Source: Nannocystales bacterium (GTDB lineage Bacteria; Myxococcota_A; Polyangia; Nannocystales; Nannocystaceae). Taken from it: a stretch of 64,000 bases of DNA. The notes under the pieces are model-generated. The model had not been told where the DNA came from. It was given only the letters and a program-made list of their open reading frames with translations, and did not search any database. The position numbers were made by a program, and so were the translations under genes. The stretch covers positions 288,001 to 352,000 of the forward strand of contig JBOEGF010000018.1 in assembly GCA_050633305.1 (NCBI GenBank), given 5' to 3'. Below, one piece after another: positions 35,489 to 38,618 of this stretch (its first letter is position 1; each line of letters starts with the position of its first letter).

Positions 35489-36481
35489 TCAGCGGCTACC
35501 GTAGTTGTGCTCGGTCCGCTCCTCGTTGCGGTCCGTCGCCACGGCGGGCGGCGTGGAGAGGGTATCGAGCCGTCGCTTGAGCTCGGCATCGAGCGAGTAG
35601 TCGGCCGCGCGCAGGGCGGGCTCGATCTGCTCGACCGAGCGTCCTCCGATCAGCGGCGCTGTGACGGCGGGGTTGGCCCGAACCCACGCGATGGCGAGCG
35701 TGACCGGGTGGACACCTGCTTCGCTCGCAAGGTCGGTCAGGCCCTGGGCGATGTCGTAGTTCGTCTTCGCGGCGTAGCGGGTCACGTACATCGGATTGTC
35801 GATGAGTCGGCCGGAGTCGGGCCGCGTGTTCCGGCCGTACTTCCCCGTCAGCAAGCCACCTCCCAGCGGCGAGTACGGGAGCACTCCCAGGCCTTCCGCA
35901 GCGGCCATCGGAAGCAGCTCTGACTCGGCCTGTCGTTTCGCGAGGTTGTACATGGGCTGAATGCAGGTCAGAGGGGCCCAGCCGTTTGAACGCGCCACGC
36001 CGACCGCTTTCATCGTTTGCCACGCGGCGAAGTTGGAGGCGGCCGGGTAGAGGATCTTCCCGGACTGGACCAACATCTCGACGCCGCGCAACGTCTCCTC
36101 GATATCGGTTGCCTCATCCCAGCGATGCAAGAAGAAGACATCGATGCGGTCCGTCTTGAGCCGCTCGAGGCTGGCTTCGACGGCGCGGACAAGATGGTAG
36201 CGGGACGACCCACGCGCGTTGGGGGTCTTGCGGACCGGGAAGTAGGCCTTGGTCGTGAGGACGATGTCGTCGCGGCAGCTTCGGAGCAGAGTGCCGAGAA
36301 TCGATTCGGAACGGCCCCCGTTGTAGACGTCAGCGCAGTCGAACAGATTGACCCCAGCGTCGAGGCACAACCGGAAGATCGCCTCGCTGGTGTCCGAGTC
36401 GGCGTCCCCACCAAAGGCCATCGTTCCCAGCGCAACCGCTGACACCCGGACGCCCGTTGTTCCCAGAAACCCGTACTGCAT
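35489..36481 (-). CDS. Aldo/keto reductase
   Basis: LGTMAFG, FDCADVY, SESILG, SLERLKTDRID, YSPLGGGLLTGKY. Confidence 0.93.
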   Translation of the reverse strand: MQYGFLGTTGVRVSAVALGTMAFGGDADSDTSEAIFRLCLDAGVNLFDCADVYNGGRSESILGTLLRSCRDDIVLTTKAYFPVRKTPNARGSSRYHLVRAVEASLERLKTDRIDVFFLHRWDEATDIEETLRGVEMLVQSGKILYPAASNFAAWQTMKAVGVARSNGWAPLTCIQPMYNLAKRQAESELLPMAAAEGLGVLPYSPLGGGLLTGKYGRNTRPDSGRLIDNPMYVTRYAAKTNYDIAQGLTDLASEAGVHPVTLAIAWVRANPAVTAPLIGGRSVEQIEPALRAADYSLDAELKRRLDTLSTPPAVATDRNEERTEHNYGSR

Positions 36482-36554: not shown

Positions 36555-36836
36555 ATGTCGGAGCGTGCCTCGGAAGACCGCCCTCTCGCGATCGCCGCAA
36601 ACGGGGGGGACCTGCCGGAACAGGTGGATGCAGTCGAGCGGGAGCTGCGGCTCGTGCACGCGAAGCTGGACCAGATCCTGTGTTCGGTCGAGTCTCTCGC
36701 GCGCAGCCCCTCGATGGAGCACGCCGTTGCGGCGACCCTTCGCGAAGCGGTGGAGCCCGCTGCCGAGGCGATTCACGCGGGCGCGGGCTTGCTGCTGGAA
36801 CGTGTCCGAGCATCCCGCGTCGCCAGCGGCTGGTAG
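36555..36836 (+). CDS. Small hypothetical helical protein
   Basis: Good RBS (AGGAG) 4 nt before the ATG, 93 aa with coiled-coil-like composition. Confidence 0.55.
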   Translation: MSERASEDRPLAIAANGGDLPEQVDAVERELRLVHAKLDQILCSVESLARSPSMEHAVAATLREAVEPAAEAIHAGAGLLLERVRASRVASGW

Positions 36837-36860: not shown

Positions 36861-36923
36861 AAAACAAAAAAAACCGGCCGCGGCTCTTCGTACGGTGGTG
36901 AGCTGTACGAGAACCGAGGCCGG
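36861..36923 (-). terminator. Intrinsic terminator on the minus strand
   Basis: Long GC-rich hairpin at 36874-36923 followed on the minus strand by TTTTTTTTGTTTT. Confidence 0.85.
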
Positions 36924-37100
36924 CGGTGTTCGGCGTTCATCGCGAACCCGTCCGCCTCAACGTTCCAACCTTCGTGTCTACATGTCTGCAGACGACAAGG
37001 TCGGGGGTGGGGTGGGGTGGGGTGCTAGGACGGCCGGGTTGAGACTCGATGTAGAAAGGGGGACTGACTTGTTCGGTGTCTCTTCGCGGTGGTGTCGCCG
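36861..37100 (-). ncRNA. Candidate structured small RNA (5' end uncertain)
   Basis: Three consecutive stem-loops whose non-Watson-Crick pairs are G-U on the minus strand, a GACA (GNRA) tetraloop, C-rich single-stranded tracts and a terminal U-run. No credible ORF. Confidence 0.6.
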
Positions 37101-37246
37101 GACGCTGCTCCCGTCGCCGTGCCAGCGACTGAGCGCACCATTAGTGGAACTGGGGACCGAACCGATCACGAAAAGTGCTCCGTTTGAGGAGAAAACCTTG
37201 AGGGCGAGTCCAGCCCGCGAACCTTGTATGATCTCGGCTCCGGTTG

Positions 37247-37969
37247 ATGACCTCGCAACGCCCTCCTCAGGCCCCGTCCGACCTCGCTGCGCAGCTCCGT
37301 GCGACCGCGCATGAGCCGGACGACGATGTGGCCTCGGCTCTGCGAGCTCGGTTGCGGCACAAAATGTTCGGTCGTGGCCAGCGTCCAGCTCCCAGTGCGC
37401 CCCTGGACGCCGCGGACCCGCAGGTCGAGTCGCCGTCCTCTCTACTGCTCGGATGGAGCGTCCCGACGGTTGCAGTCGTCGCCCTGGTCGGCATGTCGTT
37501 GTGGCTCTACCGCGCGCGAACCGAGGAGACCCCAGCACCGGCGCCCGAGGAGCCCGCGGTCTTACGCGCTCACGTGTCGGCTCCCCAGGCCGAGGCCGAG
37601 GCTCCCTTGGAGCCCGATCCTGGGCCTGGCTTGCTCGAGGCAGCTGCGCTCGAACCCGATCTGGCGAGGCGGTCGTTCGCGACCTCGGCGGCGGTTCGGG
37701 CAGCCTGGGCGGAGCCCTCCGCACCTCGCCGACTGGAGGCGACAGTGGGACTCGCGGATCAGTTGCGGGGAGAAGGGGAGCCCTTGCGGGCGCTCGAGGT
37801 GGTGCGCGCCGTCCTCGACGACCTGGAACTGCAACCTCACGCGAAGCCGGCTCGCGCAGTCTTGCTGGAGAGCTTGGCGCGGGCCTATGAAGACCTCGGT
37901 CGCGAGCCTGCAGCCACGGCCGCCCGCGCGGAGGCCAGGCGTCTGACTCCGTCCGATGGGGCACGCTGA
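37247..37969 (+). CDS. Single-pass membrane protein with a TPR-like C-terminus, putative ECF partner
   Basis: One TM segment (VPTVAVVALVGMSLWLY), Pro/Glu linker, helical C-terminus ARAVLLESLARAYEDLG. Directly upstream of the ECF sigma gene. Confidence 0.65.
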   Translation: MTSQRPPQAPSDLAAQLRATAHEPDDDVASALRARLRHKMFGRGQRPAPSAPLDAADPQVESPSSLLLGWSVPTVAVVALVGMSLWLYRARTEETPAPAPEEPAVLRAHVSAPQAEAEAPLEPDPGPGLLEAAALEPDLARRSFATSAAVRAAWAEPSAPRRLEATVGLADQLRGEGEPLRALEVVRAVLDDLELQPHAKPARAVLLESLARAYEDLGREPAATAARAEARRLTPSDGAR

Positions 37970-37982
37970 TACAGTGCCCGCG

Positions 37983-38618
37983 GTGAGCGATGGCCGGGAC
38001 GATGTCGAGTTGCTCGAGCGCTGGCGCGACGGGGACTTGGGCGCGGGCGATAAGCTGTTCAATCGCCACTTTTCTAGCGTGCACCGGTTCTTCCGGAACA
38101 AAGTGAACGAGGGGGCGCTCGAAGACCTGGTTCAGCAGACGTTCATGGCGAGCGTGGAGGGCCGGGAGCGCTTTCGCAGCGACTCGACGTTTCGCACGTA
38201 CCTGTTTGGTGTCGCACACAACCTGCTGCGCGACCACTACCGCCGGCAACGCAAGGTCGAGGTGCTCGACTTTGCGGAGGCCTCGGTTGAAGACGTGGGG
38301 TTCGGTCCGAACACGCTGCTGGGTCGCCAGCAGGAGCAGCGGTTGTTGCTCGAGGCGTTGCGCCGGATCCCGATCGACTGCCAGATCGTTCTCGAACTGT
38401 ACTACTGGGAGGAGCTATCGGCTTCGCAGACCGCCGCGGTACTCGGGATCCCCGAAGGGACCGTGCGCGGGCGGGTCCGCAAAGCGAAGGCGCTGCTCAA
38501 GAAGAAGCTGACCGTGTTGGCGCGCTCCCCCAGTGATCTCGAGTCCACGGTGCAGAACCTCGAAGGGTGGGCGGCCTCGCTCCGTGAGGCTCTCGCCGCG
38601 TCGACGCGCAGTCACTGA
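37983..38618 (+). CDS. ECF-type RNA polymerase sigma factor
   Basis: LLERWRDGD, EDLVQQTF, FRTYLFGVAHN (region 2), LYYWEELS..AAVLGIPEGTVRGR (region 4). Confidence 0.93.
   Translation: MSDGRDDVELLERWRDGDLGAGDKLFNRHFSSVHRFFRNKVNEGALEDLVQQTFMASVEGRERFRSDSTFRTYLFGVAHNLLRDHYRRQRKVEVLDFAEASVEDVGFGPNTLLGRQQEQRLLLEALRRIPIDCQIVLELYYWEELSASQTAAVLGIPEGTVRGRVRKAKALLKKKLTVLARSPSDLESTVQNLEGWAASLREALAASTRSH

Follow-up and report, generated by a model that had tools for sequence, protein, structure and literature searches.

What occupies the gap free of open reading frames at positions 36861-37140 of the window (the whole 64,000-nucleotide stretch of a Nannocystales genome analysed here), and which regulator would control it? 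The initial annotation proposed a trans-acting sRNA of roughly 200-280 nt on the minus strand, transcribed divergently from an ECF module. The comparative analysis agrees with that outline: the predicted RNA, from 212 to about 270 nt long in the loci compared, has the features of a stand-alone structured RNA gene that ends in a terminator of its own and runs divergently to the ECF module; its conservation, its covariation and a suitably placed promoter all support this reading. We are highly confident that it represents a real and uncatalogued RNA gene family. As to function, our preferred reading, to which we give a probability of roughly 60%, is an ECF-driven trans-acting sRNA that would act by pairing its C-rich loops with G-rich sites in mRNAs. 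The initial annotation overlooked the promoter and how it connects with the ECF sigma factor, and the two hairpins that it described are not the conserved core.

The predicted RNA covers 36865-37134 (minus strand), about 270 nt here and 212-236 nt in homologues. The element is single copy in its own genome and is present in all six of the other genomes of the same genus (g1), one of which has it broken at a contig end; among eight matches to its pattern in metagenomes, two carry the element and six are without the rest of it. The comparison set thus comprised nine loci (the own genome, the six genus genomes and two metagenome contigs), with eight full-length homologues, and g13 and g15 were compared as sister genera. 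When 72 family genomes were scanned with a covariance model of 166 positions, matches of 116-155 bits were found only in the six genus genomes. The best score in the 65 family genomes of other genera was 28.5 bits, with 40 candidates scored per genome, and because that number limits sensitivity distant homologues should be regarded as not found rather than absent. The surroundings are also conserved: an aldo-keto reductase gene and a 93-aa ORF flank one side of the element in all nine loci, and the kinase-type gene and the ECF gene on the other side are kept in the seven loci that extend far enough. The convergent 93-aa ORF (36555-36836, plus strand) is 46-81% identical in the six genus genomes and has no family assignment in Pfam, NCBIfam or Atlas.

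The 280-nt strand folds better than all of 200 shuffled sequences (z -4.07), and in 8/8 homologues the minus strand has a better fold z-score than the plus strand. These z-scores, together with the U-tail and the orientation of the promoter, are the reason for taking minus as the RNA strand. The original argument for that strand, that wobble positions would be G-U on it and A-C mismatches on the other, did not hold up, since the 1x1 loops in Watson-Crick-only folds of the eight homologues comprised 11 G-U and 10 A-C.

The predicted plan consists of a 5' hairpin (P1), a long-range closing stem (P2), two arms that form a three-way junction with it (P3 and P4) and a terminator (P5). Single-sequence folds of the eight full homologues agree on inner P2, P3, P4 and P5 and differ at the 5' end in three. 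The most strictly invariant bases sit in P1 and P2. P1 (37107-37134, minus strand) carries the invariant loop UGGCACG at 37124-37118, and two mutually exclusive pairings are predicted for it, one favoured by five homologues and the other by three. The 5' arm of P2 (37084-37103, minus strand) pairs with 36945-36928, and this 3' arm contains CGCGAUGAACGCCG, invariant in 9/9 loci. Twelve of the 15 P2 pairs are the same in every homologue; the pair next to the junction occurs as A-U, U-A or G-C, and 2/8 homologues have a C-A mismatch at one position. The pair probability of inner P2 is 1.0 in all eight. An invariant AUG in P2 was considered as the start of a leader peptide and rejected, as the frames that begin there, 15-199 aa long, yield no common product; likenesses to a T-box or a kink-turn were rejected on position and geometry.

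Both arms and the terminator end in C-rich loops of low complexity, the terminator loop containing CACC across homologues. P3 (37041-37082, minus strand) presents L3, here GUCCCCCUUU at 37064-37055 and GUCCCCC(C)U across homologues, in which the C run varies from 5 to 6 C and has an unpaired probability of 0.65-0.99. P4 (36946-37039, minus strand) presents L4, which reads CACCCCACCACCC across homologues, with an unpaired probability of 0.89-1.0; it holds the CACCCC repeats (37024-37004) which, like CCCCCUUUCU, had been pointed out from the start and are present in the sequence. On the plus strand, 37002-37024 contains four G runs in a G-quadruplex-type pattern (4xG4), which homologues break into GGG-U-GG-U-GGGG, so that the pattern is weaker there. 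P5 (36861-36924, minus strand) is the long intrinsic terminator already noticed by the initial annotation, with a stem at 36924-36873, an 11-nt loop holding CACCACC (L5, 36904-36894) and a U8GU4 tail at 36873-36861.

Other parts of that first description fared differently. The hairpin at 37004-36965 exists with its two G-U pairs, but it is a lineage-specific insert in L4 (minus strand), absent from 7/9 homologues, and its GACA loop is not GNRA, position 3 being C; genome G001 has a hairpin of different sequence at the same position. The second hairpin (36956-36922) is not conserved and does not form in the full-length fold, where its 5' arm is taken up by upstream pairing in P4 and P2. Nor is the CUCAA/UUGAG pairing that was thought to close a larger domain conserved, its bases belonging to P3 and P4.

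The covariation anticipated for homologues was found. In a MAFFT alignment of eight sequences 15 of the 58 pairs change on both sides, a count that shuffles (average 6.6) reached in 0/500 cases and slid controls, at 2-8, did not reach either; such counts are not probabilities, because the eight sequences are related to one another and also supplied the structure. P2 yields little covariation because it is nearly invariant, and RNAalifold missed P3 and P4 because MAFFT misaligns both. For these two arms RNAalifold was replaced by tests in which homologue arms were swapped (40320 permutations). Cognate arms paired better than swapped ones in P3 (449/40320 permutations as good), P4 (24/40320) and P5 (4/40320, with 7/20 pairs changing on both sides), and the test was not significant for P1 (5160/40320). 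Three of the four predicted helices tested, P3, P4 and P5, are thus supported by arm swap. These results bear on the idea that there is no functional RNA, only conserved DNA sites serving the divergent operon plus a terminator. The neutral 11:10 strand count would suit that idea, which we nevertheless regard as very improbable, given that complementary segments lie far apart at varying distances, that P3 and P4 show compensatory changes, that a hairpin insert is tolerated within a loop, and that a promoter points into the element.

Two further readings arise from the genes beyond the terminator. The terminator had been said to have no minus-strand gene to terminate; an aldo-keto reductase gene (minus strand, start at 36481) in fact lies 380 nt past it, but the plus-strand ORF intervenes. 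As the reductase is on the same strand, 360-530 nt past the U-tail in the loci measured, the element might be a cis-acting leader or attenuator for it. We rejected a riboswitch or attenuator leader as barely credible: the intervening opposite-strand ORF is conserved, there is no competitive antiterminator (forbidding the P5 stem costs 25-34 kcal/mol), and no Rfam riboswitch matches. The RNA might alternatively be an antisense regulator of the convergent 93-aa ORF, acting through overlapping 3' ends in the manner of a type I toxin-antitoxin pair. ORF and RNA are adjacent in 9/9 loci and both confined to the genus, the ORF stop codon abuts the U-tail in G002, and the terminator hairpin has no U-run on the plus strand. 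Type I toxins are short hydrophobic peptides, however, which the 93-aa protein is not, and cis-antisense action would not conserve loop sequences or P1/P2, so that this explanation too is highly improbable.

Upstream of the RNA we identified a predicted -35 box, CGTGATCGGTT (37160-37170, minus strand), invariant in 8/8 full homologues, and a predicted -10 box, CACTA (37142-37146, minus strand), of which CACT is kept in 8/8. The motif reads TGATCGGTT-N13-CACTA, and its 13-nt spacer varies in sequence at a fixed length. Genome-wide, TGATCG-N16-CACTA occurs 16 times, versus 0-4 times for 19 other spacers. An ORF was called at 34 related sites, and nine of these have their start codon exactly 7 nt past CACTA, as in leaderless mRNAs, every other distance being seen three times at most; the same 7-nt offset applied to the RNA places the predicted +1 at G37134, the first base of P1. 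Many genes at related promoter sites encode signal-peptide proteins, as judged by eye. A broader class, TGATCG(T/A)-N15-CACTAC, precedes many apparently leaderless lipoprotein and secreted-protein genes in the own genome; it is common in genera g1, g9, g10, g13 and g15, and is probably the regulon of a paralogous ECF, the genome encoding about 19 close ECF paralogues.

Two other promoter assignments were rejected. The invariant TGGCACG resembles the -24 box (TGGCAC) of a sigma-54 promoter, but every homologue lacks the -12 box (TTGC), showing CGGG, GACG, CACG, CCCG, CGCA, CCAG or CCCA in its place; at 321 intergenic sites in the genome TTGC and CTGC (7 each) tie with CCGG for the commonest sequence. 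An ECF11 (sigmaE-ChrR) regulon shares the -35 element, its consensus being GTGATC in the portion of the PMC7826278 supplement covered; on the same partial basis, its -10 is CGTA whereas it is CACTA here, no ChrR anti-sigma factor scores over the cut-off in the genome, and the neighbour is a kinase-type gene.

The presumed reader of the RNA promoter is the neighbouring ECF sigma factor (37956-38618, plus strand; recognised by Pfam and NCBIfam), and the distribution of the motif makes this probable. The exact motif (TGATCGGTT-N13-CACTA, the GGTT subtype) was present in 13/13 family genomes with a match to this ECF of at least 67% identity and in 5/59 of the others, one match each, with none for the reversed control; the count is not one of independent cases, because it rests on three genera. 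In all seven genomes of g13 and g15 a copy of the motif points into the operon that holds the ECF gene, 3.2-3.6 kb downstream, and in six of them a second, divergent copy sits where the RNA promoter lies in g1. The self-directed copy is absent in the host genus, which, like the 19 or so close ECF paralogues in the genome, speaks against the assignment. In g13 and g15 the divergent pair precedes small ORFs of 107-148 aa (L143:6273-7233, L144:3357-3683, L146:2989-3366); four of these were scanned and had no Pfam family over the cut-off, and the divergent member of the pair seems broken or absent in G075 and G029.

Between the RNA and the ECF gene lies a gene for a kinase-type membrane protein without a kinase domain (37244-37969, plus strand), which has no Pfam match and matches both ends of a syntenic 752-aa protein of G003 (compare L108:5750-8008), in which a Pkinase domain is present. 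In each of the three genomes scanned (G003, G018 and G020) the gene preceding the ECF encodes a full Ser/Thr kinase; it is similarly short in G002, G004, G006 and L040, and in G005 the frame measures 827 aa. The part of PMC7826278 that deals with kinase-associated ECFs presents phosphorylation as their probable trigger.

What else this sigma factor might read was sought among the other exact-type sites. In g1 the only other one that recurs precedes a HEAT-repeat gene, which is likely the regulon's second member; in G000, G003, G004 and G006 this gene (L252:543-1121 in G000 C1) follows a promoter of the GGTT type or a near match to it. In g15 promoters of this type stand before two non-coding RNAs, neighbours in 5/6 genomes, each of which has a terminator and 3-5 hairpins with C runs at their tips (L150:1790-2280, L151:1468-2146, L153:1643-2365, L198:945-1596, L203:1168-2082, L199:1078-1337). 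In the second of them 6/34 consensus pairs show double changes. Neither has an Rfam match better than E 0.7, and covariance-model searches with filters off and profile searches, both ways, detected no homology between them and the RNA described here, so we treat them as analogues and not homologues. Among 14 database stretches in which the promoter type is followed by a C run, nine include Paraliomyxa miuraensis and Myxococcota MAGs, and the remaining five come from unrelated taxa and were taken as chance; the system is accordingly one of the myxobacteria. A scan of the own genome for other C-loop RNAs was insensitive, as it missed this RNA itself. At about 600-850 of L250 (minus strand; G000 C24) lies a structured intergenic region that has C-rich loops, a CAUCGCG/CGCGAUG stem resembling P2 and no Rfam match.

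The RNA did not fall into a catalogued family. Rfam 15 gave 0 matches in the window at the gathering threshold (best hit 18.6 bits against a cut-off of 37, best E 0.32) and 0 matches at E<=1 in seven homologue loci. That it matches neither tRNA, tmRNA nor 6S RNA was confirmed: a tRNA/tmRNA search of the element found none, and 6S (RF00013, a single long hairpin with a central bubble) did not match at the element, a true 6S RNA (62 bits) lying elsewhere in the genome on contig C32. The Rfam comparison that the initial annotation had in mind, myxobacterial Pxr included, was equally negative, the best RF01812 score in the genome being 22.7 bits against a cut-off of 80, away from the element. CsrB/RsmZ-type sponges carry repeated GGA motifs in their loops, and this class was rejected because the loops here are C-rich and GGA motifs absent. 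The predicted structure, with comparative support, is that of a C-rich-loop sRNA: several stems that expose conserved C runs, with a promoter and terminator of its own.

Functional relatives were therefore sought among characterised RNAs of this shape, here as described in the parts of the cited papers that were covered. Xanthomonas sX13 likewise has three stems and three C-rich loops (4C/5C, one of them UCCCCCU as in L3), does not need Hfq and targets G-rich motifs near start codons (PMC3771888); the RNA here has no sequence or Rfam match to it, is longer, and has a three-way junction, an invariant 5' hairpin and an ECF-type promoter. Caulobacter GsrN is also an sRNA under an ECF sigma, with a conserved C-rich loop and homologues typically beside the sigma locus; it depends on EcfG/SigT, carries a single main C loop and is an activator of katG (PMC5869019), whereas here the ECF is kinase-associated, the promoter is TGATCGGTT-N13-CACTA and the loops are three. 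Listeria LhrC (PMC4132741) and actinobacterial 6C (PMC6486639) share redundant C-rich or CU-rich sites and chaperone-independent pairing, and LhrC is multicopy, like the tandem RNA pair of g15; both come from different phyla and have no Rfam match here, and control of LhrC lies with a two-component system. Pxr of Myxococcus (RF01812) is a myxobacterial trans-acting sRNA with several stem-loops; its promoter is of the sigma-54 type, its gene lies after pxrR/pxrK and its model spans 109 positions (PMC5684412), none of which holds here. The RNA likely works like sX13 or GsrN and belongs to none of the families listed. The literature searched contained no description of it, and the ECF classification supplement (PMC7826278), covered in part, may list the promoter.

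By our preferred reading, the neighbouring kinase-linked sigma would transcribe the RNA of about 270 nt from the ECF-type promoter, and the fold would keep L3, L4 and L5 open. The open loops could then pair, independently of Hfq, with G-rich sites near the ribosome-binding regions of target mRNAs, whose translation would in this way be controlled, most likely repressed, and the RNA would form the post-transcriptional arm of a small ECF regulon. From sequence and analogy we infer transcription, the sigma assignment, Hfq independence and translational control, as well as the pairing of the C loops with G-rich ribosome-binding regions. Hfq was not found in the 92%-complete genome, in a search whose control was positive in 5/14. 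Genome-wide, the loops do not pair at start regions with better energies than at coding controls (8225 genes, rough gene calls), the top matches are not enriched for secreted proteins or lipoproteins, and G-runs are not enriched at the genome's ribosome-binding sites (GGGGG 0.82 versus GGAGG 3.1).

Four top candidate targets of L3 (C7, C9, C10 and C14) were traced into relatives. C7 was dropped because its site is not conserved there, and C9 because it resembles an ordinary Shine-Dalgarno site and lies in the 11-13th percentile in 3/5. C14, an IgGFc-binding lipoprotein, carries AGGGG(G)A(C/U)UG at its ribosome-binding site in 6/7 genus genomes, interrupted in the seventh, with a C/U exchange opposite a G of L3; its pairing falls in the 0.3-6th percentile in the five genomes scored, and in the 4-6th in three of them. 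C10, also a lipoprotein, has a run of 5-7 G in 5/7 genus genomes and GGAGGG in the other two, compared with a run of at most 2 G in 21 of the 22 orthologues from other genera (23 loci examined, one without a start). We tentatively put forward the C14 and C10 mRNAs as candidate targets; shared ancestry and the needs of translation could explain the conservation of both sites.

Rho, KH and cold-shock proteins prefer C-rich single strands, and the ECF-driven RNA could instead be a decoy for such a protein, multivalent in the way of the GGA loops of CsrB. The three loops here and the 3-5 similar C-run loops in each g15 RNA would suit a decoy, as would the variable length of the C run, the lack of a genome-wide excess of targets and the finding that in 3/5 genomes there is no perfect 13-nt complement of L4 outside the gene. 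Against this, the three loops have distinct conserved flanks, and CsrA, which the genome encodes (L246, G000 C32), requires GGA loops, absent here. The characterised RNAs of like shape (sX13, 6C, LhrC and GsrN) moreover all act by base pairing in the published accounts, as far as these were covered. We judge the decoy unlikely, with an outside chance.

Pairing through the C loops does not explain the strict invariance of P1 and P2. One way to accommodate it is to suppose that the working part is the invariant 5' domain, with its UGGCACG loop and P1/P2 switch. This domain would act by base pairing of the 5' loop or by changing from one fold to the other when a partner binds, and the C loops would play a secondary part. 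The conservation of P1 and P2 above all other bases, and the split of homologues between two exclusive predicted pairings, speak for this; there is no excess of L1 complements, and the switch is a prediction only, because invariant pairs give no covariation. We consider this account doubtful. Also improbable is a scheme in which the kinase-linked ECF has a mainly non-coding output: two genera would have recruited unrelated multi-C-loop RNAs to the same promoter, and these would either act as multivalent decoys for a C-run-binding protein (for example Rho) or broadly block ribosome-binding sites that contain G runs, with a 5' domain of two states as the gate here.

As a class, ECF-controlled sRNAs with C loops are already known. 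For the myxobacteria, Pxr is the only individually characterised regulatory RNA named in a review, in the part of it that was covered. To this the present analysis adds a defined RNA family whose ends and fold are predicted, together with a promoter consensus for a kinase-associated ECF sigma that is itself uncharacterised. Because the cultured Paraliomyxa miuraensis carries the promoter type with a C-rich RNA, sigma factor, promoter and RNA should be testable together.
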